This document shows, piece after piece, positions 30,501-46,352 of a stretch of DNA of 64,000 nucleotides (its first letter is position 1; every line of letters starts with the position of its first letter). Source of the stretch: an uncultured Bacillota bacterium (GTDB lineage Bacteria; Bacillota; Clostridia; Christensenellales; UBA1242). The translations under genes and the position numbers were made by a program. The notes beneath the pieces are model-generated. The model ran no database searches, was not told the origin of the DNA, and was given only the letters and a program-made list of their open reading frames with translations. The stretch covers positions 95,728 through 159,727 of the forward strand of contig CAOJXO010000001.1 in NCBI GenBank assembly GCA_948465545.1, read 5' to 3'.

Positions 30501-32220
30501 CGTCCACCTTGAATTTTACTCTAAATGTAACACTTCCGTCAGCATCTGTGGTAAATCCAATAGGCTCGATTGATGAAGCGGTAAACCCTTCACCTATAGT
30601 TTCCACCATTAAACCTTCAATAGAAGTTTGACCTCTTAAAACAAAAATCTTTTCTTCTTCTGAGGTTGTCATTGTTGAAAGACGTAATGAAGCATCAAAC
30701 CCCTCATACTCTTCAAACTTTATGTTGCTTGCTGACTTATATAAGTTAAGGGTGTATACACTGCTTACATTCGGATTATCAATAGACCTAAGAGTTAATT
30801 TAACATTTGAAATTGAACTATTGACAAACTCCTCGCTGGCAAGAATGTAAAGTTCGGTAGATGAAGTAAGTGTGCTTTCTATGCTATCAAATATAAGGTC
30901 ACTATTTGAATTTGTCCCCATAAAAATCTGGCCGTAACTACCGCTCATATTTCGATAGTAGAACTGCAAAGTGTCCTTATTAACATTGTTATTTTGAAGA
31001 TCTCTAGAATTACAGTTGTTGTAATCTACACTAAGGCTATATTTGCCAGTAGCATTATGTACCCCCGTTGGGGTTAATTCCACCCTATATTTTGCACCAT
31101 AAGGAGATGCATAAGTGGTGTATATTGATTGTACTGAAGAAGCCGCATTGCTGTTTTCCTCAGTATAGAGATTAATATCTCTTATTTTCTCATAACAATT
31201 AATGTTAAAACTGTTTGACTTTATTGCATAATCATATCCCTCATAGCCAACATTGAAGTATGAAGTAAATGCACCATTCACATTTGTTTTTAAGGCTTTA
31301 ACCTCATAAATTAAATAACCCTCTTCTTCACTCTGGCTCTGTTTTAAAATTGAGATGTTGGCAACATCCTCCTTGCCATTAAATAAAACAACTGGTTGTG
31401 GCAAAATAGGCTCGTTTCCATTATATCTAAAACGTATATAAGCGGTGTACGCACTGTCGGTAGAAATATTAGGTACAATAGAAATTGTTTCGCTATCTAA
31501 TGGAGTAAAGTCCTGACTTAGGCTGTAAGAATACTCCATTTTAATTGAACTTGCAGATAATGCGTTAAGCACAAACAATTTAACTGGTGTTGATTCGCCA
31601 GACTCTGCTGTCGCGATAAGAGTGATATAACCTTCATTATCTGCAACAAACCCTTCTGTAAGGGTTAAGGTATTTCCAACAAGGGTTGCATTGTTTGCAT
31701 CAACACCTTGAGCGAAAGACCATGTGATGTTTCTTCTTGCAGTGGCTGGATAAACAGTAATCAACTCCTTGTCGTCAAGGGTAACAGTGCCACCACGAAT
31801 AGCATACATCTTGCTTTGCCCTGTTTGAGAATCATCTTTTTGAGTCATGGATTTAACTTCACTGTAAACAGTAACAGAAACAATAGTCTTAACGCTACTG
31901 TCATAATCGCTTGTAATTATAATATCAGCATCACCCTCAGCAATAGCATTGATTGTAATATCATTTTTCCCAGTGATAGAGTTATACACAACAGAGGCTG
32001 AGGCAATGTTTTCATAGGAAGAAGAAGCCGTAACCCTTCCCTCGTCAATTCCGTTGACTGTGGCAGAGATTAAAGCCTTATGTTCTGAATCGTCATTTAA
32101 ACAAATATCAACATGCTGCTTGTCAAGGTCGATAGTAACAGTGGGGCTGCCACAAGCAGAAAGAATACTTCCGCCAAGAAGTATAATTGTACTTAAAAGT
32201 CCTACCCAAAACTTTTTCAT
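12586..32220 (-). CDS. giant surface lipoprotein (~6544 aa) with Big_2-like Ig domains and many GLUG-type/parallel-beta repeats
   Basis: A single uninterrupted 19.6-kb ORF. The likely start is MKKFW at 32220, preceded by AGGAGGAAAA. It has a signal peptide and lipobox (LLGGSILSAC). An N-terminal Big_2-like segment reads ITINAIAEGDADIIITS. There are dozens of x-Y-[VA]-G-G-[LIFV]-[VAI]-G-x repeats, including the CYN[ST][GS] context typical of GLUG motifs. I saw no LPXTG. Confidence 0.9.
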   Translation of the reverse strand: MKKFWVGLLSTIILLGGSILSACGSPTVTIDLDKQHVDICLNDDSEHKALISATVNGIDEGRVTASSSYENIASASVVYNSITGKNDITINAIAEGDADIIITSDYDSSVKTIVSVTVYSEVKSMTQKDDSQTGQSKMYAIRGGTVTLDDKELITVYPATARRNITWSFAQGVDANNATLVGNTLTLTEGFVADNEGYITLIATAESGESTPVKLFVLNALSASSIKMEYSYSLSQDFTPLDSETISIVPNISTDSAYTAYIRFRYNGNEPILPQPVVLFNGKEDVANISILKQSQSEEEGYLIYEVKALKTNVNGAFTSYFNVGYEGYDYAIKSNSFNINCYEKIRDINLYTEENSNAASSVQSIYTTYASPYGAKYRVELTPTGVHNATGKYSLSVDYNNCNSRDLQNNNVNKDTLQFYYRNMSGSYGQIFMGTNSNSDLIFDSIESTLTSSTELYILASEEFVNSSISNVKLTLRSIDNPNVSSVYTLNLYKSASNIKFEEYEGFDASLRLSTMTTSEEEKIFVLRGQTSIEGLMVETIGEGFTASSIEPIGFTTDADGSVTFRVKFKVDANSIGLTKDCSYRIRHKNGLSSDAFDVKLFLPLTDARIDYESSSAVTKAQFNNNLYILNDGALENATTPSASVSSLLVRTGSSVPLTFIKNRANGNYADARIRFSFLDYDESADLDVFLGQTANDIYNNPARKASSSFVNVTTTSLTTTNRTGYTYLVVSFTGLDTLGNEVTFVRIVLIENYVAPTEFSVNPTFVNLYAYDSVSTKDREETKAEVRITLSEVPLTYSSLDYFTFYSNRMGGAGTMLGDSVTWVEGYYNISNIVLTDTYLSFVINGLSTKGVQNFDDVLTIRYYNTDKQEVNVNPNGVVNVKIVNADRIESLVWENEAEGGIYFEVNDTEPSILVISSAPSNAKTKELYYHITDKAGNPTPDNFVEVKNVDNNGQVVLTASEGKAGYIYVLPQDAINQGRIFYFDKLADLDGLGNPISQNESLDNLGKIKEGTTTWFDYLYENAYFINNKNEEIPFSNILIRISVMVADGSRDYEYHIYSEEDFKTKFESNKYYRVMNNITLDSWTSIENLTGGIRGDNENITITINGESFVNTNHGTISDITFTGNVAGGGFVANSNYGTIENVIIDVNAEIETDSDTGISRSVYKPSTLDGTTKTYVGGVVGENFASLSNVKVLGLKIVAGTTGSYVGGFAGKNEGGNIKGSSFEIYNFETGANTITGEYVGGFVGYLDGGNITESYIYDYTMTENSGVNLVGSHRSAFVGFANSSVNVTKSFAVVNIEDRYFTTSSGVFSQLDNTYISYYSYSGYVSDFYINGMKNDNEAALSLDIWAKPNNPNSSSFMAYVNGGMAHLKNVYQAEPLTNVSGYEVVDVLKEGNNVYKALKVGTSEAILFRYAVDSRDYAFMTDNEKMALESLNTISLASLLDSKDADRLVVGCADTSIVDINANSIVVKDTGVVTLTISSKQDYSLNKAITVYVINALSDLNASWAYQGGSENITNGSVINLQRGRSLTVSYNFEHASMYLGNRGNVFDLIPNEYELNHVPSSNTIIVETTGTNKTILNLVTNKDSENAEINTYVRLLGLDEQVSDVISDVIRTQFAKNYSLNLFDGAISIGATNNEVSITPSSMGVVRVQLISGAKDDVLTPNVKLMLAGGSVDLSVVNDNGTWTASRDKQEQILIQIVPDAGNESAVAVDGLYTLNFTVYLSVVRDYRAEISETQTYNISLSSLYQVVEEDFDLIVSRQEFTNIAISNYRVNNMLYEKIGGYGEDRDVYVNKYEVSNATSGILAPGSSSLLKVNVNPQYAYYHHFTMEYSGASMIGAATINFMTQDIYGRYYEDTKSQVDLITNGISVIPSGEAKENYDLYFKIWANNAIQQKDDVALKFTIRFYDSNGEEITYANYNLTISYLAEPQVLVDGYSTAILAKGQTAEVKIVVPADQNVDINSTIVENVVSGITLFNTNWEIDDSNAGVVVYTSRISASINAKLKDDANGMFRISVTVSRTSNGYEERKTAYAEVNLVDFKVDADNISIANAENDTFVTYLGLSEPLQFKYPILPENYTYDPSDQESVDNVNAIKANINSFERNSYFKDEDAGYYINYARDNNGNPIPSQPKTVNTRLDYYSNVNNNWMSVYNGREYSSVGGYLEWTYNERDNILFVKGLRPTTDNAPISLRLQTTVQVGETYNDYYYYFNVLVKVYSDEDTPLLVYSEDDFMDMAEGDAQNYILMNDIVLRNYTPIDTNAIASLDGNGYTIYIDWFNPNPEDTASLNFALFNNVASTTTLKNIRVNVYNGGQITVNVANPNYSSINIAGLAITNNGIITNCEVVSFQKNGVTGAVINGDTGIVVKYVRGEGVTQPEYMSDPAVSNVAGFVITNNGSITNSRVGGSDVYTIGENYTDSQGQTIGYFLDKTYLEKFNIIAQGNIAGFVLENAGTIASSFVKNFGMQNQTASTRSITAGFVANNNSQILTSYVEGVKEDKPKDVFCRQGSSLSSSLGKIAGFVYQNDGKIQDAYSNILISNTSNENQAYLVSGFVYENTGTLENCFSASQITSLVYSQMNFSGVDEKGNLLATGSYINCYYYNAQSLGNDDSTEESYNTRAVQLSELDDETYFYGFAFNSSENSINGVWSLIASEGILTLVEPNKIAYSSRYYLAGEEEGQYFLPYSTLYNSERGLINANYGSENNPIIIRNAQEFVNVTGKSTSTYISSYFTKTRINGNYRIVSDLDFSDLVVSGGDNEEEGTIDLPSINKAFTGNLFGNGFTIANLSITSSEDMIAFGLFASIEGASIINLNITVNQVVNNLANFVGSIAGYAKNSNLVNIQITNNKDCVVEGLNFVGGVVGMMFGDSKVKNVNVIDPNVIADRYNEVGIESQEGATSNIGMTRNVATFSAQTAFELRMLLIQQIGDIFLSEANVNMLNNVVAFISNMSYAGGAFGYVDIFTEQESMVADYQHKTEMQSSDYELSKVRVQGAINVQGQVVGGVVGFAGVHTDIKDTGAIFTDPASEPVSHLVATKFYAGGIVGQGYGNYIQLFSEYDETTQNTIENNLLTYYSGSNNAERGSTTIFSTEGIDKDYSQIYVGGLVGYAGSGQLTVSYSKLNVVDMLARYAGGVIGYVNTTNSGVYYISDGTDNIVTKYYMNEVYATGDVRAKNAAGGIIGSVSRGSNIILESVNAVNFLSTYDYAEEVQYRAEDFYMSKVSTDLDENEQPIEYNIYSFDKINVYAIIGNYENQNDFNFLVVTKAADDDEAAAAGTKRYVTVGAVRQYVSSINTLDTIKLFAYPNEPYRVGDINVNEEGNLHNIMAIPSVSTYPSAETGYDDTYGVFLGSDVWSMNNWYHDSDSLYPRIKFSIVERPYIYLDAYDASIRAALTRMQNSDIEVRVRGLTAAGSETKAHIDIAGFLQRNDITFKDGIENFRGRLIGWQVGQQVSIQGYPQEWPALLLDRPLFNGTSAGFRMSNVSVKFRPYKDPVLGEITNKTIFSSDSDYKGAFSNSNMMLAVLDNVQFEFTHNVYFYNSNNDSEVGLLAPTITNTSISNFNIFINLPESGQVFLSTDATRVGLIAGKATQNSENRIMNIQNVNIYNYTDASGNLINNSNTSNNNVYVGAYFGEVLKESGKDDNGNDLTPTKLNIQIGKVGNTYTQIQGNDWKGITQLNNVSETINVNYNHDNIYIGGYAGLASNIDTVTFADIDTVTNISLSLSGNTSTFTGQSIVYAGGLFGAYKGSGINIAGKTESVPTKTFNVRIYSSSDKNNDVYLGGLVGQMASDGTPEISNVVTNFEVFKSTNVSGRLTSAYHNSADIMKNYIDNLGNTFAFNAFEVNENAYVGGLVGRTTGNLAITSDEEILRYNNPYKAISVRAEKNAYVGGLVGRSEKDLTIKGIIRVGSVLDVNAGFGDKNTQAYVGGLVGDIYLTNGATANIVNDGLSYADMSFVGQIYTSHKASIGGIVGRITGLDESQNIYIKDTAFGGAIKIYNAENIGFDIGGLVGTFADAGHMGGTNAKAGRVEISNNYSFGDVFFLYKDEKIDSVSTTETTFSKHGQVYYGGLIGRGLDVSGLQNPIQENYIMTTYNDQRPNDGDKINAVFGNIQGISETAGNFYSHAVTLTTDNNAYDVGYMTPYDTNKGITGGGYTGHEYFDGITEKKNALAEFMLTRVSNVTSLTGEGSKLNPKSFTGAIATEEIDQLEKVHGMRYYYFSADNAQAVSMESITNTLDNVAIIGDGYTINYTNKNASPIEYIKGQSFVSGLNIVLDIDNDNVKAGKTERMSIGGVASYMESGIIYAVGVSGNMSVGGNTAISLGGLVGSIANGLITESVSDIHIIYRAGQYKDGGSILYGQASAIANVNKVNNKNINNVLVTYTYAVGIVESYIDTHIDGFIQGRGEHTSTEVEIRHSYSATNLNWHDHTSANTEPDSSHRTVFDGAKLTDTYNDKNANGIGSTTTAGIKQKFNAGNWAQDDKFNYSYPTRQFNYLKYSSYASRGDKDTDLSDDTKGIERYEYNRLTGSEIWGNSPVDVMGAYYIVPNAGVWNSYLPNVNDGITENKKVIIRNDFDFNYFDSTNTIKNFKSTASLDLDGQGHRLYNFNGTGLFQVLTNSFVRNVDVLDVTITGIRDKSSNTGVIAETITNTIISNVTLSGIVTIDKANNAGQYGGVTGTATNSTIASVMSNLKVDANKRYVGGLVGYAENTTIKHSSNNGPINTTNTGTRSSIYTGGIVGYLYNSSYVEYCYNTSSVTSGYVITSASASNYAGGIAGRSDNSTIDYCYNSGLVKAGNKQCTTAQYAGGIVGYSGGSSVSNSLNEASVEAIATNSEFKIRTNKTANEKIRTFTIYTESFRNVYAYGVGYNGSEGIAGTNYNTNEEIVMNGCAIKGDITSGTKYTMDISGYPANSNTFTDGWLRYYQFSYESYFKEVSGGEKDDNNHFVITSRDEFGFPTSLYIKLLHRVSIKEASTTKYSKDLEDYYSWTSDSQTPTYRSYVADKYNFYENKKSTDNGDVNNIKNKVLSETKSNNKNTNILINNKYYYLANEAGSDLYNLMNSALIYTTTYTTSDPTIIDLFDKGDYSYNNFNFDYKDDSEKIVKVIGTGWNKIGSGSNAKVVFDLSIYATEEINNWADKKLSISYSLDETYTIDLTNYKYSYYEEDGRIEIDISDNTYTALIETIFDNSSAFGYQTKLNDSDEEFINAYYTTYQANGTTKELYFVYGNKSLVLYKNLKLYNSDGNVLNTVNTSTLLPEMLAGKSITIHYGLTIESTFTVDAPKSSAGKVSDSYTGNKNISNSEKFNSSFTAGGNGNIVASRVPIDFTYSILDTVNNITAPIIKTEFDEENITDRITSFEINVSGNTDMKLGKIAVFKAGVWSSEIENFDINGINMTITSNGETLIIVSDVYADDDIQSEIENYLNTLTLTYDSISIQGQFASTGYTATVTDKDDNKLVVFDGANWTKVNDLIIDSYTSTFADGVWSFENVSADDINSILNYNISAYSNTASFTLPDASSWDKALFYIGDSPVVSYNAAAFATLGNLQVSIEDNKVTVTSLDFEKNAPIEVDYFYQLKEIVLPQIIVDKVYDKQFSNGILSGNITYNFVDLAFEENDVEFDVTDNSQSKIHTLNMTYALGKVNSKSANGIIVYYGTFKFNSNYNVNYSTDNLNVTITNNKDSSGYMKTEFSGLSLVAGNAEVELQPNATNTLTFSVDSDFSIQSNIYHTHFEVDMSLDDEKNNVAPYFESAYDMTFNITGGKKYSVNIDGKMYDVMAPSFIYNYNLNANGVTTLKSITQYKFVYTMEEIREQVDENGNKPYADCKTIDDYIMKAIELHLASKELKDKTTEEKLASVTQFVEKMFEQYIWTLDGNIETWTYTNTWVEQSDNPHIDEDGNKHPNNITHTKEYQLASYNRDTGKWTVYGSSNTYNSIEEAIKANYSNGSIDITKQQNNIDLGDYTDKVPEETPPVVLHFTKEDFVLSGLDIVYLRNGENTSKIIYLDSPDNIDLSLTLESNFKFNAKELSINSNLAELNKVNQTLVYDKSDLTFTNLQDEVVDVDDLTTFYNYDSASNSLTFNYKPNGEDKLLLTNTMTGEISAFIASQENDNAIAMPILPSGDSISYEGIILTRNMYLGKVSYALFSGRLSGNDYVISYHSDQSSLFDSTTDGAFMKDLSVVGQLNACNVEEVKEMVGGNTRYYATSIISNYNKATIHNVSTYGNVRNAEFRKYDQYIASGFVGFNEGALNNVRNFVAINGITSTGRDFKSTIITGIFYKNETATIDNLTNYGLLIGGNGYNEISNGRQGGQGSNVYAIGFETDKQVGSNSQYVIAGNGGSSFVGKNGARGWDVLSNSTTSGIDVTKIAGKNGGAAVAGGKKGEAYLYGTSENSTENSNQYLKNGKDGQRASAGNGGMQGWVAIAGCVDGVNVGLRNAGYTAVYLGIALSDGPLPFMDIVAAAVYAALMIELNNFEQPALYFGAEGNYCGFAGAVLANGDNECSYKNIQTKQIGKTFQALPTEFIDHVTQEGMFATGVPDAFRY

Positions 32221-32394
32221 TTTTCCTCCTTGTTTAATATTTGCAATTTGACAATTCTTAATCAATTTAACTGCCAATATTCTACAAAATTAAACCTTCT
32301 GTAAAAAGTATAAAATTCAACAAGAAAAATGTCAAATAAATAATTATTAAATTAAAATAAATAATTATATATTATTCGTCCTCTTGCCTTAATT

Positions 32395-32424
32395 TCAGTT
32401 TAATAAATCCCCCCCCCGCGTCAA
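32395..32424 (-). promoter_or_regulatory. candidate promoter of the giant gene with a G9 homopolymer in the spacer
   Basis: On the - strand: TTGACG (32424-32419), c, G9 (32417-32409), atttat, then TAAACT. That gives a 16-nt spacer made mostly of the G tract. The tract is ~190 nt upstream of the start codon. Confidence 0.4.
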
Positions 32425-32544
32425 GTATTTACCTAAAATTTTATACGCAAAATTAGAGTGTTAAATATGCAAATATTTTTTTTGCATTAAATTATTGATT
32501 TTTAAATCTTTTTTTGATATATTTTTCATATCTACGAGGTAAAT

Positions 32545-33249
32545 ATGCAAAAAATCTTAGGCGGACTTAGAAAAATATGTGAAGAATTTAATTTAATAGA
32601 AAATGGAGATAAAATTGCGGTAGGCTTATCTGGCGGAAAAGATAGCACCACCCTTCTGTCTGCACTTGCAAAATACAGCGAATTTAGCAAAGAAAAATTT
32701 TCTCTTGTTGCAATCGCCGTAGATTTAAGTGACGGAAAGATGGATTACACCCCATTACAAAAATTCTGTGATGAATTAAAAGTCCCTTTCCATTTAGTAC
32801 CTTCAAATGTTTTTGAGGTGGTTTTTGATATTAGAAAGGAGAAAAACCCTTGCAGCCTATGTGCAAATATGCGAAGAGGAATATTAAACAGCACCGCAAA
32901 AGAACTTGGCTGCAATAAAGTTGCATTAGGTCATCACCAAGACGACTTAATCGAAACTTTTGTTATTTCTCTCTTTTTTGAAGGTAGACTTTCCACATTC
33001 AAACCTATGACATATCTTTCGAAAACTGACCTTCATGTAATCAGACCCCTTCTCTATTGCAGTGAAAAAGAAATAATAAATGTTTCTAAAAATTATCCTA
33101 TAATTACAAATGTATGTCCCGCCAATCATAAAACCGAAAGAGAAACAGCAAAAGAAATTCTTGAAAAATTAGACAAAAAATATCCAGACGCAAAAAAGAA
33201 GATTTTTAATGCAATTATTCACAAAGAAAGATACAATTTGTTTGATTAA
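32545..33249 (+). CDS. ttcA: PP-loop ATPase, TtcA-family tRNA 2-thiocytidine biosynthesis protein
   Basis: SGGKDS PP-loop and the PCSLCANMRRG cysteine motif typical of TtcA. Confidence 0.8.
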   Translation: MQKILGGLRKICEEFNLIENGDKIAVGLSGGKDSTTLLSALAKYSEFSKEKFSLVAIAVDLSDGKMDYTPLQKFCDELKVPFHLVPSNVFEVVFDIRKEKNPCSLCANMRRGILNSTAKELGCNKVALGHHQDDLIETFVISLFFEGRLSTFKPMTYLSKTDLHVIRPLLYCSEKEIINVSKNYPIITNVCPANHKTERETAKEILEKLDKKYPDAKKKIFNAIIHKERYNLFD

Positions 33250-33284
33250 AAAATAAAAAAATATTAAAAATTATTTAAAAATAA

Positions 33285-33322
33285 AGAAAAAATCGAGAAA
33301 ATACATTAAATATTCTCGATTT
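33285..33322. terminator. bidirectional terminator
   Basis: AAATCGAGAA...TTCTCGATTT 10-bp stem with A and T runs on both sides, between convergent genes. Confidence 0.75.
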
Positions 33323-33351
33323 TTATTTAATTATTAATTTATTTTAATTTT

Positions 33352-33897
33352 TTAACACTGTCTTTTAAGCCCATTAATACTTTCTTTTTGAGAGGTTAAA
33401 TTTGCTGAAATAGCCGTTATTTGACTGCTAATTCCTGGCGTATTTACCGCATTTTGAAGGCGTACATTCAAAGCAATCATACCTGACAAATAGTCTGAAA
33501 TTACACTAAGTCCACTACAAAAGTTGTTACCCAAACTAGGAATGGTAAGCTTTTCCCTAGGCGGATTATCCTCCCCACTTAAAGAATAATAAACATTAAG
33601 CACTGCCGCCTGAGCAACTTTATTCTCTGTCATAAGGCTTTGAATAGCACTTCTGTTACTCTGACTTATATCTCGCATCTGCTGATACATCATATCAAGC
33701 ACCCTTGTGCGGTTATACAAATCAGCAGCAAAACATACTGCATCTTCCCCACTTACCGTAGGCAGTGCGGGGCTAGGCCTTACTGGCACTGCATTTTGCG
33801 GAGGGGTAACTATAGGTGCAACAGGAACATTATTCACTTGATTATTTTCAACCATAACCTTACCCTGCCTCTGCGAGTCGTTTTTTAATTCATCCAT
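33352..33897 (-). CDS. hypothetical protein (181 aa), Pro/Val-rich N-terminal region
   Basis: Clean ORF. No family recognised. Confidence 0.55.
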   Translation of the reverse strand: MDELKNDSQRQGKVMVENNQVNNVPVAPIVTPPQNAVPVRPSPALPTVSGEDAVCFAADLYNRTRVLDMMYQQMRDISQSNRSAIQSLMTENKVAQAAVLNVYYSLSGEDNPPREKLTIPSLGNNFCSGLSVISDYLSGMIALNVRLQNAVNTPGISSQITAISANLTSQKESINGLKRQC

Positions 33898-33989
33898 AAA
33901 ATCTCCTTACAAATTTATATATGTCACAAACCGAAAGATTGTTTGACTTTATAAATTAAAGGGGATAAACTCTATACTAGGAGAAAATT

Positions 33990-35489
33990 ATGGTTACACT
34001 AATAATCTTGGACGGATTCGGCCTTAATAAAAAAACATTTGGAAACGCTATTGCAGCGGCAGGCACACCAAACCTTGATAAACTTATAAAAAAATACCCT
34101 TACACCACCCTTAAAGCAAGCGGAGAAGCAGTAGGCCTTCCCGCAGGGACTATGGGAAACTCAGAAACAGGACACCTTACAATAGGAAGTGGCAGAGTAA
34201 TCCTACAAGACTTAAAACTTATAGACAGCGAAATTGCAAATGGCAACTTCTTTAAAAATAAAGCCCTTAATAAAGCAATGCAACACGCTGAAAAAAACAA
34301 GAGCAATCTCCATATTATGGGGATTTTGTCCGATGGTAGGGTACACGCTGATATTAACCATTTATTTGCCATTCTCGATCAAAGTAAAAGTTACAAAATC
34401 AAAAATATATATCTTCATGTCTTCACAGACGGACGTGATACAGGACTGAAAGACGCACCTAAATACATTAAGATGACAGAAGAAAAAATTAAAAACACTA
34501 ATATTAAGATAGGAACACTTGTAGGCAGGGTGCTTCTTGACCGTGCAGGACAATATGATAAAGTAAAAAAGATGTATGATTTACTAGTGCATGGGAAAGG
34601 CGAAAAAGTAAATAGTGCTATGGAAGCCATAGAAAAAAGTTATGCAAAAGGGATATATGATGAAGTAATAGAGCCTTTTGTTATTGACAAAAATGCAAAA
34701 ATACAAGATAATGACAGCGTAATCTTCTATCACTATAGAAGCGACCGCGAACATGAAATCACCTCTGCTATTGTTGATCCAAACTTTAAAGAATTTAAAA
34801 CTAAAAAGTTTACAAATCTTCTCTTTACACCTATGACACAGTATCTAGATAGTTTAAAACATCTTAATACTATATTTCCACCAAAAGAAGTATGCAATGG
34901 GCTTTCTGAGATTATCTCTAAGAATGGCTTAAAACAATATCATATAGCTGAAACAACAAAATATGCACATGTTACATTTTTCTTTAATGGCGGAAGAGAT
35001 AAACCTTTTAAAGGCGAAGAACATAAGTTGATTGATAGTTATAATACTGACGACTTCTCTTACTACCCTAAAATGAGGGCTCTAGAAATTACCGAAAGTA
35101 CACTGGAAGCCATCGCTTCGCTTAAATACGATTTCATTCTTGTAAATTATTCCAACCCTGATATGATAGGCCATACAGGCAATTTTGAAGCCACTAAGGA
35201 GGCTATCACCTGCGTCGATAAACAAGCCTACGCACTTGCACTTGCCACACTTATGGCTGGTGGCGACTGTATTATTACAGCCGATCATGGAAATGCCGAA
35301 TGTATGATTGATGAAAAAGGAAATCCAATAAAAACACACACAACAAACGATGTCCCTTGCATACTTGTCAGCGAAAAATATAAAAAGGCGAAACTTAAAA
35401 AGAAGTGCTCTATAGCAAACATTGCACCAACTATACTTAAATTATTAAACCTTGAAATCCCAGACTCAATGGAAAACCCTTTATTTTAA
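33990..35489 (+). CDS. gpmI: 2,3-bisphosphoglycerate-independent phosphoglycerate mutase
   Basis: 499 aa. The N-terminus is ILDGFG...GNSETGHLTIGSGR, the catalytic Ser region. The C-terminus is ITADHGNAE, the metal-binding motif. Confidence 0.95.
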   Translation: MVTLIILDGFGLNKKTFGNAIAAAGTPNLDKLIKKYPYTTLKASGEAVGLPAGTMGNSETGHLTIGSGRVILQDLKLIDSEIANGNFFKNKALNKAMQHAEKNKSNLHIMGILSDGRVHADINHLFAILDQSKSYKIKNIYLHVFTDGRDTGLKDAPKYIKMTEEKIKNTNIKIGTLVGRVLLDRAGQYDKVKKMYDLLVHGKGEKVNSAMEAIEKSYAKGIYDEVIEPFVIDKNAKIQDNDSVIFYHYRSDREHEITSAIVDPNFKEFKTKKFTNLLFTPMTQYLDSLKHLNTIFPPKEVCNGLSEIISKNGLKQYHIAETTKYAHVTFFFNGGRDKPFKGEEHKLIDSYNTDDFSYYPKMRALEITESTLEAIASLKYDFILVNYSNPDMIGHTGNFEATKEAITCVDKQAYALALATLMAGGDCIITADHGNAECMIDEKGNPIKTHTTNDVPCILVSEKYKKAKLKKKCSIANIAPTILKLLNLEIPDSMENPLF

Positions 35490-35494
35490 CAACA

Positions 35495-35523
35495 AAAACA
35501 CAAGACCTTCTTGTGTTTTTATA
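35495..35523 (+). terminator. rho-independent terminator after gpmI
   Basis: AAACACAAG-acctt-CTTGTGTTT followed by a T-rich run. Confidence 0.8.
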
Positions 35524-35566
35524 TTTTTCCTTTGGAGTTTCGACAATTTTCGACTACAATTAATCT

Positions 35567-36196
35567 ATGACTTTTACCAAGAATTTTAAACTTATTCTAT
35601 CCTCCTTGATAATTCTATTTGTCAGCATTTCAAGTATGCTGGGAGTTTTTATATTCTATTAATTCCAAAAAGAGCCTTTAAACTTCATCCTAACTAGTAG
35701 CATAACCCTAGAAATAGATCAAACAAAAACAATATCCTACAATGTAAATTTTAAAGATGCCGAAATCACATTTCTCATTGCCGATCCTAACATTGCAAAC
35801 ATTGATGGCAATAAAATCACTGGTCTTGCAGAGGGCACAACAACCTTGCGTGCCACCGCACTATATAATGGACAAATTCAATATTCAAGTTGCGAAGTTA
35901 TAGTCGAACCTCGCCCTGCACTAAACTTCAATTTTAACATTACCCCTCTTGTAGACTGCTCGTACATAGATGCAACATTATATATGGCAAATAATACTGC
36001 AAGTTTTAAACTAGAAATCTTTGATAACAGCAACAATAAAATTGATATAAGTGATATAGATCATAGTTGCACTTGCGATATTTCACTTTCAAAACAAATG
36101 GATATAATTATCGTCACAGCCAACGACGAGGGTTATGTGGAATTTAAAGTACAAAATACAGATTTCATATTTAGCCTTCCTATTAAAAAATTTTAA
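35567..36196 (+). pseudogene. membrane-anchored Big_2-domain protein interrupted by an in-frame TAA
   Basis: ATG at 35567 encodes a 31-aa signal-anchor (MTFTKNFKLILSSLIILFVSISSMLGVFIFY). TAA follows at 35660-35662. The same frame then continues with a Big_2-like sequence (ITLEIDQTKTISYNV..IANIDGNKITGLAEGTTTLRATALYNG..) to the stop at 36196. There is no in-frame ATG downstream of the stop until ~35986. Confidence 0.6.
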
Positions 36197-36214
36197 AAAA
36201 ATCCTAAAAAAAGG

Positions 36215-36243
36215 TTGACTTGTTTTGCAATACAAGGTATAAT
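36215..36243 (+). promoter_or_regulatory. consensus sigma-A promoter of the (host) tRNA-Ile gene
   Basis: TTGACT (36215-36220), 17-nt spacer, TATAAT (36238-36243). It is the only near-perfect consensus promoter in the window. Confidence 0.8.
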
Positions 36244-36327
36244 TCTATTGCGTTGTTAAAAGAAGCGAAGAAAAAACTCACATAATCCCTCTTTGAGTAA
36301 TATAATCCTTCTTGTAAACGCATATAT

Positions 36328-36366
36328 AGAGGTGTAGCTCAGCTGGTTAGAGCACCACCCTGATAA
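36328..36366 (+). pseudogene. 5' half of host tRNA-Ile(GAU), truncated in the anticodon loop (attL side)
   Basis: AGAGGTG-TA-GCTC-AGCTGGTTA-GAGC-A-CCACC-CTGATAA, after which tRNA similarity is lost at 36367. The acceptor 5' arm AGAGGTG pairs with CATCTCT at 50362-50368. Confidence 0.85.
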
Positions 36367-36427
36367 AGAGAATTAGGGTCGGAGACGCAAGGTCAGAACT
36401 TGCCATGTCAAACACAATTTAATATGA

Positions 36428-36504
36428 TGGGATGTAGCTCAGTCGGTTAGAGCACCACCCTGATAAGGTGGGGGTCGGTGGTTCGAGTCCACTCATCCCA
36501 ACCA
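36428..36504 (+). tRNA. tRNA-Ile (anticodon GAU), complete, CCA-encoded, carried just inside the element
   Basis: Cloverleaf read by eye: TGGGATG / GCTC-AGTCGGTTA-GAGC / CCACC-CTGATAA-GGTGG / GGGTC / GGTGG-TTCGAGT-CCACT / CATCCCA-A-CCA. Confidence 0.9.
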
Positions 36505-36507
36505 TCG

Positions 36508-36535
36508 AAAAGTCCGTGTTTACGGACTTTTTTTT
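36508..36535 (+). terminator. rho-independent terminator after the element tRNA-Ile
   Basis: AAAGTCCGT-gttt-ACGGACTTT followed by T8. Confidence 0.85.
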
Positions 36536-36563
36536 ATGATTTTATAACTAAATTTAGCACAAA

Positions 36564-36599
36564 TTTTGACAGCAAATATACCTATTTTTGACAGCAAAT
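36564..36599 (+). repeat. two direct copies of TTTTGACAGCAAAT (candidate arm-type integrase sites)
   Basis: Identical 14-mers at 36564-36577 and 36586-36599, 22 bp apart. A third TGACAGCAAA copy lies at the other element end (50237-50246). Confidence 0.5.
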
Positions 36600-36716
36600 G
36601 TTTTTTTGCCAAAAAAGGACAAAAAAATAGACCGATAATTGCGATTTGCAACTATCGGTCTAAATTTACTTAAAACTGCCTAAAACTGATATATTTGTAG
36701 TCAAATTGTAGTCAAA

Positions 36717-38063
36717 CTACATTTCAAAATCTTTTTCTTTTTTGCGCTTTCGTTTTTCCAAAAGTTCAAGCAACTTATCAAGTTCGTCATCATTGAGATC
36801 TTCAAGTAAGTTTTGTGTTGTATTCGCCTGATCTGTCTTGTTGCCATCAACTGCATATTGTTTGTTTAATTTGTCGGTTGTTTTTTGAAAATATGAGCGG
36901 TCAACAGAGTTATATGTTGTGATTGTAGTTTTAACGGATTTGTGGCCCAAAAGTGCTTGAATAACTTTTGGGTTTTCATTATTCTCAAAAAGCATATTCG
37001 AATAGGTATGCCTTAGTCCATGAAAGTGAATCCCATATTTATCAAGTTTGTTTGACTTCAAAAATCTTTCAAGAATTGATTTTGTGCCAGAATAACTTCT
37101 CACACTTCCGTCACTATTACCAAAAACAAGCGAGGAATTTTGTGTTAAATTAACATTATTCTCTCGTCCAAAAAAGTGGCGATTTTCTTTCCATTCTTCC
37201 AAAGCTTGAATGAGAACATCTGGCATTGGCACTTCTCTAACAGAGCATGTCGTTTTCGTTTCACTGATGACGGTCACACGTTCTTTGACTTTCCCTTTTT
37301 CGTCAAACTTAGGGATGGTTGTTATTGCTCGTTTGATATTGATTGTCTTATTTTTAAAATCAATATCTTCCCAAGTGAGAGCCAATACTTCACCAGTTCT
37401 TAAACCTGCAAACATCATGCACATGCAAAGCGGTTTAAGAAATTCATGTGTGTTTAACTTGCTTAAAAATTCATCTCTCGCTTGCGGAGGGATTGCTTTA
37501 TATTTGTTTTCACTTTCATAAACTTTCCTTTCATTGCTTCGCACTCTTGTTCTTGTTGTAGGATTATTCGTCGCAAGTTTGTTATCAACAGCATAATTAA
37601 AAAATTGATTGAAGATAAATTTGACTTTCTTCACAACTGCAAGACTATATCCTTCTTCAAGCATTTCGTTAAGCACTTTCTGAATGACAATTGTGTCTAC
37701 TTCATCTATTTTCATATTCCCGATTTTAGGATCTATGTGCAATTTGAAATTTCTATATGTGTGTTCAAAAGTTCTTGGACTAACTTGCATTTTTTTAAAA
37801 ACTAAAAGCCACTCGTTCATCATCTCACCAATCGTTGTATTTTCAATATACTCATAATTATTGCTGCTTATTTTGTTCATTAATTTGTTGAGTTTGTCCA
37901 CGACTTCTAGACGCGATTTTCCGTAAACAGTCTTGCGAATTGTCTTACCATTTTCATTATATCCGGCAGTTGCAACGCCAGCCCATCTGCCATCTGATCT
38001 TTGGTATATTGACCCCTCATTGTTGCCACGTCTTGTTTTACTTCTTATTTTTTTCTTAGCCAT
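36717..38063 (-). CDS. int: tyrosine recombinase / phage-type integrase
   Basis: 448 aa. Catalytic signature: FAGLRTGEVLAL (Arg I), HGLRHTYSNMLF (H-x-x-R), LLGHKSVKTTITTY (His/Tyr). It is adjacent to the tRNA att site. Confidence 0.92.
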   Translation of the reverse strand: MAKKKIRSKTRRGNNEGSIYQRSDGRWAGVATAGYNENGKTIRKTVYGKSRLEVVDKLNKLMNKISSNNYEYIENTTIGEMMNEWLLVFKKMQVSPRTFEHTYRNFKLHIDPKIGNMKIDEVDTIVIQKVLNEMLEEGYSLAVVKKVKFIFNQFFNYAVDNKLATNNPTTRTRVRSNERKVYESENKYKAIPPQARDEFLSKLNTHEFLKPLCMCMMFAGLRTGEVLALTWEDIDFKNKTINIKRAITTIPKFDEKGKVKERVTVISETKTTCSVREVPMPDVLIQALEEWKENRHFFGRENNVNLTQNSSLVFGNSDGSVRSYSGTKSILERFLKSNKLDKYGIHFHGLRHTYSNMLFENNENPKVIQALLGHKSVKTTITTYNSVDRSYFQKTTDKLNKQYAVDGNKTDQANTTQNLLEDLNDDELDKLLELLEKRKRKKEKDFEM

Positions 38064-38316
38064 TTGTCACCTCACTTGCGTTGTTGTTTAAAGTCAGCCA
38101 AGTGACGAAATTAAGCACGCTTACAACTTGCCTTTTCCCAACTTTAGTTGTAGGAAAATCTTTGCTTCTCAAAAGATTTCTCACATTATCTCTTCCAAGC
38201 CCTGTAATTTTCATAATATCTTCACAATCTAAAAAATCTTTATCATATTTTGTTGAAATTCTATCCACTTCAGTTTGTATTAAATTGTTAATATTTAGTT
38301 GTTGATTGTTGTTCAT
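38056..38316 (-). CDS. xis: excisionase-family HTH DNA-binding protein
   Basis: 86 aa. It overlaps the int start by 8 nt. The HTH reads IMKITGLGRDNVRNLLRSKDFPTTKVGKRQVVSVLNFVTWL. Confidence 0.75.
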   Translation of the reverse strand: MNNNQQLNINNLIQTEVDRISTKYDKDFLDCEDIMKITGLGRDNVRNLLRSKDFPTTKVGKRQVVSVLNFVTWLTLNNNASEVTNG

Positions 38317-38495
38317 GTTTACTCCTCGTAGTTATATTTGTATTTATAAAAAATCGGTTTCGGGTATCCCGAAAGCTAAAAGATTGACGAGAACATTTGG
38401 TGATTCTGCCAAAAGCCTTTATTTTAGGGCAATTGGCAGATTTTATAACACCAAAAGTTTCTCACTTATCCTGTTTTCTTAAATCTCTATAAAAA

Positions 38496-39701
38496 TCACA
38501 TTTCAAAGTCTATAATTCCTTCTTCAACAAGCCTGCTAAACTTGGCTTCGTCAAGTCTTTGCATATATTCTTGAAAGGCACTCATAACTTCATATTCAAA
38601 TTGATTAGCAAGTCGCAAACACTCATTAAGTTGCTTTGCCAATTTCTTCTTTTGCATAAGTTTTTCTCTACGAACACTTGCATTAAGTTTTAATCTTTCG
38701 TTATCAATTTGTTTAATTTTGAAAGAATAGTCAATCACAATATTTCCAAGCCTGCGATAAATATCTTGCGTGTATTTCTTTTCAAAAAAGAATGGTTGTT
38801 TGCACCGATTTCGTTTGCAATAACATTCAAATCTTTCATCTTTATATTTTGCCAAATTAATAAAATCTTCATAGGCAACTTTTGAGAATTTTGATTTGTT
38901 TATCATATAACTTGTTATGCTGTCAATCTCAGATCGCAAACTTGACATATTCTCGCTTGCATAAGCAAGACTCCCTTTCTTTGAAAATCGGCCCGCAAGT
39001 GAAAGCAATTTGTTGTTGAGAATAAGCCCCATATTCTCGTTTAATTGCTCATTTACATATTCTTGAATAAGTTGTCTATTTCTTCTTTCTCGGGCTTTAA
39101 AATCAGTCGCAGCAAGCTCTAAATGTGCTTTAAATTCAAGAATGGCAGTTTTGGACAATTTGCCATTTGAAAACCCCTTGTCATCTTGTCGCGGACGCAG
39201 TCGAACCGGCTCTTTTTCAAAAAAGGATAAATGGATATGCCTGTTGTCGGTATTCTCGTGAAGTCCAGCATACCAAATCATATTGTCTGGATTAAGCCCT
39301 GCTCGTTTAAAAAACTTTGGCAATTCACTTTTCACAAGTTCATATGCCTGCTCATATGAATTGCACCAAGTCTTACCAAAGCTCTCTTCAAAGGTTATAA
39401 GCCCATCCCAAATAACAGACTGGGTTTCTCTTAATCGTTCTCTCAATTGCTTTTTATCCTTCTCTGATAAAAGTCCATTTTGATTAAATATGCCAGACGA
39501 TTTTTCTTTATTGTTTGCATACTCAACATAGTCTTTAAATTCTTGAATACCAGTTTGGATATAGTTAATATAATCTTTCGCTATGTTGGAAGAATAATAT
39601 TTTCTTTTCTCTTTATAAAAATCACTTGAATTGTTTGGCCCATAAAAGTTCAAGAAAAAGTTGACATTAGGCGTTTGATTATCTACCACCATTCTCCTCA
39701 T
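38496..39701 (-). CDS. relaxase (MobL/MobA-VirD2-like mobilization nuclease)
   Basis: His-triad region WYAGLHENTDNRHIHLSFF. The N-terminal YINYIQTG segment resembles MobL-type relaxases. It overlaps the upstream RHH gene. The start could instead be Met4 at 39692. Confidence 0.7.
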   Translation of the reverse strand: MRRMVVDNQTPNVNFFLNFYGPNNSSDFYKEKRKYYSSNIAKDYINYIQTGIQEFKDYVEYANNKEKSSGIFNQNGLLSEKDKKQLRERLRETQSVIWDGLITFEESFGKTWCNSYEQAYELVKSELPKFFKRAGLNPDNMIWYAGLHENTDNRHIHLSFFEKEPVRLRPRQDDKGFSNGKLSKTAILEFKAHLELAATDFKARERRNRQLIQEYVNEQLNENMGLILNNKLLSLAGRFSKKGSLAYASENMSSLRSEIDSITSYMINKSKFSKVAYEDFINLAKYKDERFECYCKRNRCKQPFFFEKKYTQDIYRRLGNIVIDYSFKIKQIDNERLKLNASVRREKLMQKKKLAKQLNECLRLANQFEYEVMSAFQEYMQRLDEAKFSRLVEEGIIDFEM

Positions 39702-40128
39702 ACTCTTTATTCATGATTTTGATTTTCTCATAATCAACATTGCAAAGCCCTTCACTAATGTCCCCGCCAACAATCTTATTGCCTTCGTTATTAAAAACTG
39801 CACAAGCAATATAGTTCAAAATCTTTTCTACAAATTTATTTTCAATATGTTGATCTGCACTATCAGCTTTTCTTTCACCATTTTGTCTTTTGAGTTCTTT
39901 GTTGATTTCGCTTAAATTTTCTTTAATTTCTGTCAAATTTATAATTTCATCATAGGCATTGTCTCCGAGCAATTTCTTTGCTCCAAGCAAAACGCAATGA
40001 CGAATAAAGTCTGCCATGTTGTCAAACTTTTTCTTGCTTTTGTCAAAAGCCTTTTCCAATGTTTCTTGATCCTCTTGTGTGTAAATTCGTAAAGTGTGTT
40101 GCAACTTCACTTTTTCTGGTTTTAACAT
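39679..40128 (-). CDS. MobC-like ribbon-helix-helix relaxosome accessory protein
   Basis: N-terminal strand-helix pattern (HTLRIYTQEDQETLEKAFDKS..MADFIRHCVLLGAKKLL). It sits immediately upstream of, and overlaps, the relaxase gene. Confidence 0.55.
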   Translation of the reverse strand: MLKPEKVKLQHTLRIYTQEDQETLEKAFDKSKKKFDNMADFIRHCVLLGAKKLLGDNAYDEIINLTEIKENLSEINKELKRQNGERKADSADQHIENKFVEKILNYIACAVFNNEGNKIVGGDISEGLCNVDYEKIKIMNKEYEENGGR

Positions 40129-40163
40129 TTTTACCTCCGTGTATTTTAAAATTTAGGTGCAAC

Positions 40164-40197
40164 AAAAAAAGAACGAGTGCAGGAAATCGTTCTTTTT
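40164..40197 (-). terminator. terminator after the sigma-like gene (alternatively an oriT inverted repeat)
   Basis: AAAGAACGA-gtgcaggaaa-TCGTTCTTT with a T7 run on the - strand. It lies in the 160-bp gap upstream of the mob genes. Confidence 0.55.
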
Positions 40198-40287
40198 CTG
40201 TTTGCTTCCTATAATATATAAAGGACATTTTAAAGTATAAAAGTTTAGGCAGTAAATGTATTTTTGATAGAAAATTTTAAAATTTTT

Positions 40288-40971
40288 CTATTTTTGTATT
40301 GATTTTATAAAATCAGTGACTGTTTTTGACATAAATTGCCAAAGTTTCTTTTGTTTTGGACTAAGCCCAACTCCAAGTTTATCTGCAGTTTTAATCGCTT
40401 GTGTCGCACCTTTTGCAAAATCTAAAATCTTATCTAAATCAAATTCAAAGTTCTCATTTGTCAAGCCTTCTTCAAGAGTGTCAATAAATTCATCTGTAAA
40501 ATGTTTGCAATGACTTTGCCAAAAATCTGTCTTAATAAAATCTTTATCTCTTGCAAGAAAGAAAACAAAATGCTTATAAGTTGTTTTCAAAAATTGCGTC
40601 AGTGCACTTTTGCTCATATTGTGTTTTTTGGCAATATCGCAAAGTTTCATATCTTTTTTAAATCTTTCAATCAAAATTTCTTTTTGTAGCGGTTGCAATT
40701 TTTCTGCAACTTTCCAAATTATTTCAGCAAAGATTTTATTATCAACCTCTTGCTCGATATCCACACTTTCATCTTTGATCGTCTCTATAAACTCAATCTC
40801 ATCGCCATCATCAGAAATGGTTTCAAAATAACTGCACTCATATTTACGTGCTTTTTTCATAAGTCTTCGCCAATATATATCGTTAGCCCAAAGATAGCGA
40901 GCAACTTCTTCACTGACTTCCAAGTCAATAGTTTTGTTATGTATTCGGTCTTTATACTTAATCCAAACCAT
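40288..40971 (-). CDS. sigma-70 region-4-like HTH regulator (227 aa)
   Basis: LQPLQKEILIERFKKDMKLCDIAKKHNMSKSALTQFLK resembles the sigma-70 r4 / LuxR-type HTH. The rest is unassigned. Confidence 0.5.
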   Translation of the reverse strand: MVWIKYKDRIHNKTIDLEVSEEVARYLWANDIYWRRLMKKARKYECSYFETISDDGDEIEFIETIKDESVDIEQEVDNKIFAEIIWKVAEKLQPLQKEILIERFKKDMKLCDIAKKHNMSKSALTQFLKTTYKHFVFFLARDKDFIKTDFWQSHCKHFTDEFIDTLEEGLTNENFEFDLDKILDFAKGATQAIKTADKLGVGLSPKQKKLWQFMSKTVTDFIKSIQK

Positions 40972-41027
40972 TCTTGCTCCTTTGCCAGATTATAACATAT
41001 ATGTTTCAACTTTGCTATGCATCTGAC

Positions 41028-41057
41028 AAAAAAAGACAAGCCAAAATATGGCTTGTC
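41028..41057 (-). terminator. rho-independent terminator ending the DGR transcription unit
   Basis: GACAAGCC-aaaatat-GGCTTGTC 8-bp stem followed by T7 on the - strand. Confidence 0.8.
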
Positions 41058-41080
41058 CTAAAAAGCGAGCATGAAAACCA

Positions 41081-41323
41081 TCAGCAAGACTTCCTTTTAA
41101 GTTTTTTGATTTCTTCTTTAAGTGCAAGAGTTTCTTCAGCAAGAGTTTTAAACTTTTCTTCGCTTGCTTTCATTTCTTTCTCAATTCCAACCCTGGATTT
41201 TTCATCCGCGTCAACATATCTTTCCATGATATCGAGTTTCTCTGCTTCCAACCCATCAAGCGTTTTAAGTTTTTCATCCAATGCTTTTTCAAATTGTTTT
41301 AATTGTTTTTCAACGTTTTCCAT
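41081..41323 (-). CDS. small coiled-coil protein (80 aa)
   Basis: AAGGAG RBS. Heptad-like, Glu/Lys-rich sequence. The gene is translationally close to the stop of the DGR target. Confidence 0.55.
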   Translation of the reverse strand: MENVEKQLKQFEKALDEKLKTLDGLEAEKLDIMERYVDADEKSRVGIEKEMKASEEKFKTLAEETLALKEEIKKLKRKSC

Positions 41324-41333
41324 AAGTCACTCC

Positions 41334-44261: not shown

Positions 44262-44344
44262 GCGTTTCTCCTTAAAACTTACATATTAAGTATATCACAT
44301 TTTGTAAAAAAAGTAAATACCTGTGCCTTAAAAAGTTATTCCTC

Positions 44345-45358
44345 TTATGTTTTTATGTATCGTTGCAACAAATTTAAGGCATTTGAATGGCATAAATGTG
44401 CTTTATAAGCGTTTAGTCGCACATTGATATATTCGTCATCGACAAGTTCTTCTTTCCTAAATCGATAAATATGTTTGATATTTCGCCTTAATCTCAATTT
44501 TGCTTGAGCTCTTAAAAGTCGAATGATTTTGCCATTCTCATTTAAAATTGTTCTAAATCCCAAGAAATCAATTCCATTTGAGAGTTTTCCAATTTGTGTT
44601 TTCTCATTAAGTTCAAGATGAAGCTTTTCGTTGCAATAATTTTCTATCTCATTTTTGCAATGTTTGAGATATTCCTTATCTTTATGCACCAAAATCATGT
44701 CGTCCATATAGCGCACATAATATTTTATCCTAAGTTTCTCTTTTATAAAATGGTCAAGTCCATTAAGATAAAAAAGTGCAAACCATTGACTTGTTTGATT
44801 ACCTATTGGGAGCCCAACATTTGTGTCAAAATTTCTGCTGTCGATTATTTGATTTATTATCCACATGACTTTGTCATCAAAATCAACTTTTAAAAGTTGT
44901 CTTTTTAAAATGTCATGGTCGATATTTTGAAAATATTTTCTTACATCGCATTTCAAAAAATAGCCCACATTGTTTTTGTTGATATTATAAAATTTACGCA
45001 AGAATAATTTCAATCTATCAAGTCCAAACATTGTTCCTTTGCATTTTCTGCAAGCAACATTGTCAAAAATCAGTTTATTCTCAAGTTTAGATTCCAATAT
45101 GTTTGTGCAAAAAGCCATCAAAACAACTCTGTCTTTATATGACAGAGCTTCAATGTTTCGCTTTTTGGGCTCGTATATATAAAATTGTTTATATTTGCCG
45201 ATTTGATATGTTTGCTGTAAAAGTTTTTTTGACATTTCAGTCAAATTCTGACTTAAATTTATTTCAAAAGAGATTGTTTCTTTTTTATGCTGCCTTGAAA
45301 GTCTGCATTTTTTGTGTGCAGCGAGCAACTTTTCAAATGTGAAAGCATCTTCAAGCAT
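44345..45358 (-). CDS. DGR reverse transcriptase
   Basis: The start is MLEDAFTFEKLL at 45358, preceded by AAGGAG. RT motifs are present, including PIGNQTSQ (the [ILV]GxxxSQ motif characteristic of DGR RTs) and YVRYMDDMILV (YxDD). Confidence 0.93.
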   Translation of the reverse strand: MLEDAFTFEKLLAAHKKCRLSRQHKKETISFEINLSQNLTEMSKKLLQQTYQIGKYKQFYIYEPKKRNIEALSYKDRVVLMAFCTNILESKLENKLIFDNVACRKCKGTMFGLDRLKLFLRKFYNINKNNVGYFLKCDVRKYFQNIDHDILKRQLLKVDFDDKVMWIINQIIDSRNFDTNVGLPIGNQTSQWFALFYLNGLDHFIKEKLRIKYYVRYMDDMILVHKDKEYLKHCKNEIENYCNEKLHLELNEKTQIGKLSNGIDFLGFRTILNENGKIIRLLRAQAKLRLRRNIKHIYRFRKEELVDDEYINVRLNAYKAHLCHSNALNLLQRYIKT

Positions 45359-45678: not shown

Positions 45679-45724
45679 AACAGACAGTCCCAAAAATAAT
45701 CTTACCTTAATTAAAGCGTCACCG

Positions 45725-46300: not shown

Positions 46301-46352
46301 ATCCTTTCCTTTTATATATTTTATCAAAAAAATTTATGCTTTTCAATAGGTT

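Follow-up and report, generated by a model that had tools for sequence, protein, structure and literature searches.

The 64,000-nt stretch analysed here, called the window (positions 95,728 to 159,727 of contig CAOJXO010000001.1, assembly GCA_948465545.1, from an uncultured Bacillota bacterium of the Christensenellales lineage UBA1242), contains a host tRNA-Ile(GAU) gene that is split by a 14-kb mobile element carrying a complete tRNA-Ile(GAU) gene of its own. A tyrosine integrase joined the 9-bp core CCCTGATAA of the element's attachment site (attP) to the anticodon stem-loop of the host gene. The host 5' half was left behind its own promoter, the 3' half was moved 14 kb away, and 61 bp past the crossover the element brings a full-length tRNA-Ile(GAU) in the same orientation, together with its own terminator. 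The locus is probably explained by a "split-and-substitute" integration module of an integrative mobilizable element (IME), and we infer from sequence comparisons that the element tRNA functionally compensates for the lost host tRNA.

The split host gene and the limits of the element

The features of the locus are as follows.

36215–36243 (+): host tRNA-Ile promoter, TTGACT-17-TATAAT, 11/12
36277–36306 (+): second promoter-like site, CTCACA-18-TATAAT, 10/12, 22 nt upstream of the host tRNA start
36328–36366 (+): 5' half of the host tRNA-Ile(GAU), from acceptor strand AGAGGTG to the anticodon loop, cut at attL
36358–36366 (+): core CCCTGATAA, attL copy; the crossover region, comprising the end of the anticodon stem and the loop (attB/attL/attR alignment)
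36367–36427 (+): 61-nt linker, a decayed tRNA 3' half (linker alignment)
36387–36403 (+): T-arm-like hairpin GCAAG-GTCAGAA-CTTGC in the linker
36428–36504 (+): complete element-borne tRNA-Ile(GAU) (ARAGORN, Rfam), with U1:A72, discriminator A and encoded CCA
36507–36540 (+): intrinsic terminator behind the element tRNA, an 11-bp stem (36507–36532) and a T run
50326–50334 (+): core CCCTGATAA, attR copy
50335–50372 (+): displaced 3' half of the host tRNA-Ile (GGTGG…CATCTCT-A-CCA), pairing with AGAGGTG at 36328
36367–50334 (no strand): integrated mobilizable element, 13,968 bp (empty site L130, related copies, Pfam and PHROGs content)

The host 5' half starts 100 bases upstream of the element tRNA, closes with CCCTGATAA and is followed by unrelated sequence after the anticodon loop; the element tRNA starts exactly 61 bp beyond its end. 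Joining the two host halves results in a perfect tRNA-Ile(GAU) with an A1:U72 pair. Patterns for the two halves (32 nt for the 3' half and 33 nt for the 5' half) had two matches each versus none in 100 shuffles, which excludes a chance origin.

An unoccupied site (attB) was reached through a look-up of the NTP-transferase encoded in the right flank, on a contig from another sample and a related strain (L130); a look-up of the DegV protein, which has a TTG start, yielded no record. L130 consists of the left flank of the window, an intact AGAGGTG...CATCTCTACCA tRNA-Ile and the right flank of the window, and its left flank equals window positions 36223–36327, including the -10 region of the host promoter. 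In the three-way alignment, attB is the left part of attL and the right part of attR joined within CCCTGATAA, so the inserted DNA spans 36367–50334 (13,968 bp), and L130 proves the element boundaries. A preliminary description of this DNA, made from the sequence alone, had claimed that the element destroys a host tRNA gene; the intact tRNA in the empty site and the halves at both ends of the element here bear this out.

The junction rebuilds no tRNA because attP shares only the core CCCTGATAA with its target. After the core, the element supplies AGAGAATTAGGGTCGG… and not the 3' strand of the anticodon stem, for which the linker has AGAGA, and the acceptor strand of the linker, CATGTCA, is unpaired with the host AGAGGTG. 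ARAGORN made no call at the junction (36328–36411), and Rfam gave 27.3 bits, under the threshold of 29. A hypothetical chimera of the host 5' half and the element 3' half would contain A1xA72 and A3xC70 mismatches, and two acceptor mismatches would arise in such host/element chimeras at 7 of the 10 fragment positions tabulated.

The element-borne tRNA, its relatives and its linker

One of the two tRNAs in the window is the gene at 36428–36504, called tRNA-Ile(gat) by ARAGORN and scored by Rfam as a member of RF00005 with 72.5 bits, far above the gathering score of 29; family, isoleucine isotype and GAU anticodon are all confirmed. The two programs agree with the preliminary description, which had placed a complete tRNA-Ile(GAU) 61 bp inside the left junction and had proposed scoring it. 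The cloverleaf is regular, and the acceptor stem (TGGGATG/CATCCCA) is Watson-Crick paired in 7 of 7 positions, including the U1:A72 pair that had been remarked on as unusual. Judged by the host tRNA-Ile genes of the group, U1:A72 is no warning sign, since none of them starts with G1:C72 and both A1 and U1 starts occur. The D-loop differs from that of the host, as described before (AGTCGGTTA in the element tRNA versus AGCTGGTTA in the host tRNA). The identity to the host 3' half, previously stated for the anticodon stem through the T arm, holds over positions 18–69, with mismatches only at acceptor positions 70 and 72; compared with the rejoined host tRNA, seven positions differ (1, 3, 5, 16, 17, 70, and 72).

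Relatives were found by an integrase-protein-guided scan of species-representative genomes; an exact-pattern scan for the window-type linker GGGTCGGAGACGCNNGGTCAGAACNTGCC in the JGI metagenomes and IMG/VR gave no match. The same element occurs in three other mouse-gut metagenome-assembled genomes (L001, L003, and L010), with integrases 85–100% identical and DNA 88–99.7% identical over 10–12 kb. In L001, the integrase is 100% and the element DNA 97–99.7% identical, and what lies left of the tRNA 5' half has no relation to the window. In both L001 and L003, the tRNA 5' half marks the left limit of homology to the element of the window. More distant relatives (L002, L004, L005, L008, L082, and L086; integrases 62–87% identical) share the same layout of host 5' half, linker of 61–73 nt, complete tRNA-Ile(GAU), terminator, and convergent integrase. 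The comparison of element copies proposed in the preliminary description thus has a clear outcome: the tRNA travels with the element and keeps its place in L001, L003, L004, L005, L008, L082, and L086. The host 5' half in front of it is TGGCTTG in L003 versus AGAGGTG in the window, and TGGCTTG, AGGATTG, and AGAGATG are found among L003, L004, L005, L008, L082, and L086.

The tRNA is 77/77 identical in L001–L004, compared with only 74–87% identity over the next 212 nt. A second element lineage has an AGGATTG/CAATCCT acceptor stem, which corresponds to three compensatory pair changes (1:72, 4:69, and 5:68) with 7/7 pairing kept. Because of the conserved tRNA beside a diverging flank and the compensatory acceptor changes, the element tRNA bears the signature of a used tRNA under selection, rather than that of a pseudogene or a mere DNA site.

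The linker had been suspected to be a decayed tRNA remnant on account of its GGGTCGG motif, which lies at 36376–36382, and comparison with relatives supports a decayed tRNA 3' half. The linkers of L086, L008, and L116 keep AGTGG-TTCGACT-CCACT-CATCCCG, identical in 22 of 23 positions to a real T arm and acceptor 3' strand, and this stretch aligns with GCAAG-GTCAGAA-CTTGC-CATGTCA of the window behind a common GGGT..GGAGAC. The 5-bp stem of the hairpin is paired in all seven linker sequences, with double changes in four of the five pairs (stem variants AGTGG/CCACT, GCAAG/CTTGC, and GCGGG/CCTGC), and the loop is no longer T-loop-like. This level of pairing was reached by 0 of 500 shuffles, and shifted registers pair at 31–51%. 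The hairpin therefore seems to be maintained, with precursor processing and attP architecture as candidate roles.

A sister clade of integrases (L090–L105), 51–55% identical to the integrase of the window, is found beside complete tRNA-Thr(GGU) genes, for example in the metagenome loci L090, L093, L095, and L099–L105. The element tRNA-Thr(GGU) is identical in nine loci. In front of it, with a period of ~100 bp, stand one or two host tRNA-Thr 5' halves whose last letters are CCTTGGTAA. The linkers of this clade are 61–72 nt long and of several types, with 63 nt in the unit next to the tRNA. Since the sister clade does likewise at tRNA-Thr(GGU), this comparison makes the split-and-substitute strategy a property of the integrase family and not of one element.

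Two units of 5' half and linker precede the complete tRNA in L008 and L086, as well as in L095, L099, L101, L102, and L104 of the Thr clade. The units within one array often have different linkers, and in such arrays the inner 5' half usually carries another acceptor strand than the outer one (L008, L095, L099, and L104), consistent with an inner half derived from the tRNA of the previous element. The same host flank can carry different arrays (L095 versus L101; L099 versus L102). L009 represents the predicted reciprocal junction, in which an element end, the core, and a 3' half adjoin another integrase.

Three further loci deserve mention. On a chromosome-sized contig of 342 kb (ERZ1643251 NODE-16), locus L116 (~880–1050) shows an element end without tRNA, followed by CCACCCTGATAA, a linker, and a complete tRNA-Ile; this attP-like junction suggests head-to-tail elements, and the contig encodes another related integrase (L112) at a distance of ~35 kb. 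L079, a contig of the same strain as the window (assembly ERZ14864032) retrieved by an iPGM look-up, is 100% identical to window positions 27990–36466. At 8330–8510 of L079, the anticodon loop of the element tRNA runs into a second linker copy, where the contig ends; it may represent a tandem copy in the element tRNA or an assembly artefact, and we do not rely on it. In L003, the outermost tRNA-Ile 5' fragment, ~200 nt upstream of the complete tRNA (~9500–9610 in window orientation), breaks off at CCAC and is followed by an odd stretch of ~50 nt and a T-arm-like AATGG-TTCAACT-CCATT. It may be the scar of a different element or of a different crossover point.

Expression of the element tRNA and alternative explanations

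The consensus host promoter at 36215 and the strong terminator behind the element tRNA, both named in the preliminary description, were confirmed, and no + strand terminator was found in the window between 36215 and 36507. As for a promoter of the element's own, the TTGCCA-14-TAATAT site is present as described, and the promoter scanner reported a further match, discussed below, that ends on the first nucleotide of the tRNA. We applied the criteria of the promoter scanner to 16 related arrays. In 14 of them, the outermost fragment is preceded by a promoter of at least 10/12, often 11–12/12; inside the arrays, from that fragment to the complete tRNA, none of the 16 has a promoter-like site reaching 9/12. 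Element tRNA and target gene point in the same direction in all instances, and successive units start ~100 bp apart throughout. The co-orientation, the ~100-bp units, the lack of a terminator, the promoters outside the arrays, and the unsuitable match in the linker hence make transcription that begins at the host promoter and reads through to the element tRNA, with subsequent RNase P cleavage and 3'-end processing, the best-supported route to this tRNA.

On this basis, we propose that the host promoter would transcribe a precursor in which the dead 5' half and the linker precede the element tRNA, and from which RNase P and 3' processing would free a functional tRNA-Ile replacing the lost one. 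Precise excision would give back the host gene, as the empty site implies, with a predicted circular attP junction of …AACACTTCCCTGATAAAGAGAATT…. According to the canonical rule, attP carries a fragment of the tRNA gene (tDNA) that regenerates the target gene (Islander, PMC4383910). An element supplying a 3' half alone would, however, create two acceptor mismatches in most hosts because host acceptor stems differ, and bringing a complete tRNA would lift this constraint. Independence from the acceptor stem offers a rationale for a broad host range. As a side effect, the element tRNA would recreate an identical attB and invite further insertions, leading to arrays of 5' halves and linkers. The element may also be stabilised, as a cell losing it imprecisely would be left without a complete tRNA gene at the locus. 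Regarding the origin, one may speculate that a canonical element entered the first of two tandem tRNA genes and was excised via the anticodon loop of the second, yielding a circle with core, 3' half, spacer, complete tRNA, terminator, and integrase.

Several observations weigh against this explanation. The linker contains a formal sigma-70 match, TTGCCA-17-TATGAT (10/12), at 36400–36428. In the minimum-free-energy fold of the 286-nt precursor, the two repeated 5' halves are paired and the cloverleaf is absent; this thermodynamic prediction takes no account of co-transcriptional folding, and the pairing between the duplicated halves makes it uninformative on processing. The family is not uniform either, as L006 and L084 show a single tRNA by the integrase without any fragment. 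The L006 tRNA looks chimeric, with a G5xA68 mismatch, and together with L084 it suggests that canonical and substitute modes coexist in the element family. Finally, compensation would be unneeded if the host has other tRNA-Ile(GAU) copies, e.g., in rRNA operons.

The formal match raises the question of whether the element tRNA could be expressed independently of the host promoter, from TTGCCA-17-TATGAT or TTGCCA-14-TAATAT in the linker. We regard this as unlikely, despite the proper 17-nt spacing of the former site and despite the precedent of the Fionnbharth phage tRNA, which has a demonstrated promoter of its own (PMC10865867). Transcription from TTGCCA-17-TATGAT would start inside the tRNA, by ~5–9 nt, because the -10 hexamer ends on tRNA nucleotide 1; moreover, its counterpart is TACGAT in L001 and L004, and no site of at least 9/12 occurs in linkers of the remaining types (L005, L008, L082, L086, and the Thr family). 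It also seems improbable to a similar degree that the tRNA serves no compensation and is kept as a part of attP, as an attB landing pad, or as a hitchhiker of capture. Its place between the core and the candidate P' arm sites would fit such a role, and element tRNAs are themselves used as targets in arrays (L008, L086, L079, and L095–L104). A target, however, needs only 9–12 bp, and the compensatory acceptor changes together with the contrast between 77/77 identity in the tRNA and 74–87% in the flank point to a folded, used tRNA. In addition, tRNA-Ile(GAU) reads AUU and AUC, which should be frequent codons at 34.6% GC.

Canonical integration would make the tRNA at 36428 the host gene restored by an element 3' half, and the upstream fragment with the linker an unrelated scar or duplication. 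It has the usual rule for tDNA-targeting islands in its favour (PMC4383910), and L006 resembles a chimera of this kind with its G5xA68 mismatch. Nevertheless, we give it next to no chance, and for the window it is already refuted: the 3' half at attR (CATCTCT) pairs with the upstream AGAGGTG and not with TGGGATG, L130 has the AGAGGTG...CATCTCT tRNA directly behind the same promoter, and in L001 the integrase has a different flank but is still accompanied by the linker and the TGGGATG tRNA. A tandem duplication of the host tRNA was likewise rejected, being contradicted by L130 and L001.

Beyond the split-and-substitute explanation of this locus, a wider generalisation can be offered only tentatively, and we hold it to be somewhat less likely than its opposite. 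Mobilizable elements of gut Clostridia might possess a "cut-and-substitute" module with a promoterless tRNA in attP, hijacking of the target promoter, a broad host range, attB renewal with stacking and leapfrogging scars ~100 bp apart, crossover at an alternative core in the element tRNA interconverting with canonical 3'-half elements, a functional relic hairpin, and at least two targets (Ile GAU and Thr GGU).

Gene content and comparison with known systems

The element encodes the following genes and candidate sites close to its ends.

36717–38063 (-): tyrosine integrase, 448 aa, convergent with the tRNA (Pfam Phage_integrase 4e-25, SAM_3, Phage_int_M)
38056–38316 (-): excisionase-like HTH_17 protein
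38496–39701 (-): MobL/MobP2-type relaxase
36567–36576 and 36589–36598 (+): two copies of TGACAGCAAA, candidate P' arm-type integrase sites
50237–50246 (+): third copy of TGACAGCAAA, candidate P arm-type site, 80 bp before the attR core

TGACAGCAAA has four matches in the window, three of them at the element ends, against 0.28 expected. This layout is the pattern expected of arm-type integrase sites, and since the candidate sites lie beyond the terminator of the tRNA, the tRNA would be located inside attP.

Further genes of the element encode a sigma-r4-like protein, a diversity-generating retroelement (DGR), a YpsA/SLOG protein, a helix-turn-helix protein, a metallophosphatase, and an AAA/DUF4143 ATPase. 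Pfam and PHROGs revealed neither capsid, terminase, portal, tail, or lysis genes in the element nor matches to a type IV secretion system or coupling protein. The MobL/MobP2-type relaxase makes the element mobilizable; no oriT was recognised in it. With an integrase, an excisionase-like protein, a relaxase, no conjugation machinery found, 9-bp direct repeats, and an empty site, the gene content identifies it as an IME and not a prophage. Deposited phages contain no close relative of the integrase (33% at best), so that no characterised att system can be transferred by homology.

The DGR cargo (41334–46327, -) comprises bAvd, a template repeat (TR, 45570–45678), a reverse transcriptase, and then a 975-aa BspA-LRR protein with the variable repeat (VR, 43905–44013); all 19 TR/VR mismatches fall on TR adenines. 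The target is unusual in that the VR lies near the N-terminus (~aa 83–119, at the end of a DUF6273-like domain) and in that it is located downstream of the reverse transcriptase. Positions 12586–32277 (-), left of the integration site, are taken up by a single giant open reading frame (6,563 aa; called with 6,544 aa in L079). Sub-threshold Rfam matches to HPnc0260, a Helicobacter antisense RNA, at 36466–36610 and 50334–50448 (-) were rejected, as they are carried by tRNA T-arm/acceptor sequence, and one to ncr1241 was dismissed.

Among known systems, the canonical anticodon-centred islands (Williams class A; Islander, PMC4383910) likewise have a tyrosine integrase by a tRNA, crossover in the anticodon loop, a displaced 3' fragment marking the far end, and possible tandem arrays. 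Whereas these islands regenerate the gene from the tDNA fragment of attP, here only a decayed 3' half follows the core, the junction forms no tRNA, and a separate complete gene is supplied. Island finders assume regeneration from a fragment and could misplace the boundaries of such elements or read the 5' fragment and the tRNA close by as a 61-bp "island". A looser analogue is the tRNA-Thr(GGU) locus of Caldiarchaeum subterraneum (Sugahara et al., 2012, PMC3293823), where a 5' fragment also lies upstream of a complete tRNA and recombinase-bearing mobile DNA is involved. That locus is archaeal, however, with 1.8 kb of mobile DNA between fragment and complete tRNA and with introns involved, and no element-borne replacement gene by attP is described for it.

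The closest parallel is the "tRNA-dependent lysogeny" of actinobacteriophages (Fionnbharth, LeBron, Gaia, and others; Guerrero-Bustamante and Hatfull, 2024, PMC10865867), in which disruption of a tRNA gene at a short core and compensation by a phage tRNA were shown experimentally. Both systems combine a tyrosine integrase, attB in a host tRNA gene, a very short core (8–17 bp in the phages, 9 bp here) that does not rebuild the tRNA, and an element tRNA with the same anticodon. Close relatives within the integrase family use the canonical 3'-half mode in the phage system (Cluster K mycobacteriophages) and seem to do so here. The structural hallmarks are thus all found here, namely an integrase with attB in a tRNA gene, a core of ~10 bp, no rebuilt tRNA, and an element-borne tRNA. 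The carrier is, in contrast, no temperate phage but a 14-kb mobilizable element of low-GC gut Clostridia without virion genes, equipped with a MobL relaxase, a DGR, and accessory genes. The Fionnbharth tRNA resides elsewhere in the genome under its own demonstrated promoter, whereas the tRNA here lies in attP, 61 bp from the crossover, and is apparently promoterless. The retained relic 3' half and the stacked fragment arrays also differ from the phages, as do the targets, tRNA-Ile(GAU) and, in the sister clade, tRNA-Thr(GGU); the need for the tRNA is inferred here. Lj965 of Lactobacillus johnsonii, a Firmicutes prophage, was named as a possible case outside Actinobacteria (PMC10865867). According to the papers citing it, its integration does not rebuild the tRNA and it encodes a cognate one (PMC10865867, PMC3714127), but it is a prophage with several tRNA genes.

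In the limited literature covered, we found no published description of such a layout in integrative and conjugative elements or IMEs, which is no proof of novelty. The stacked fragment arrays provide a readable record of past integrations, and for gut Firmicutes that resist genetic manipulation, a cassette of integrase, attP, and tRNA could become a portable tool for integration. The locus represents a compact solution, with the replacement gene inside attP and probably borrowing the promoter of the target, and it widens tRNA-dependent integration beyond phages, to mobilizable elements of uncultured gut Clostridia. The principle has been on record for phages since 2024; what is new is the layout that would capture the target promoter, the carrier that is not a phage, the integrase family with two targets, and the arrays that would renew attB.

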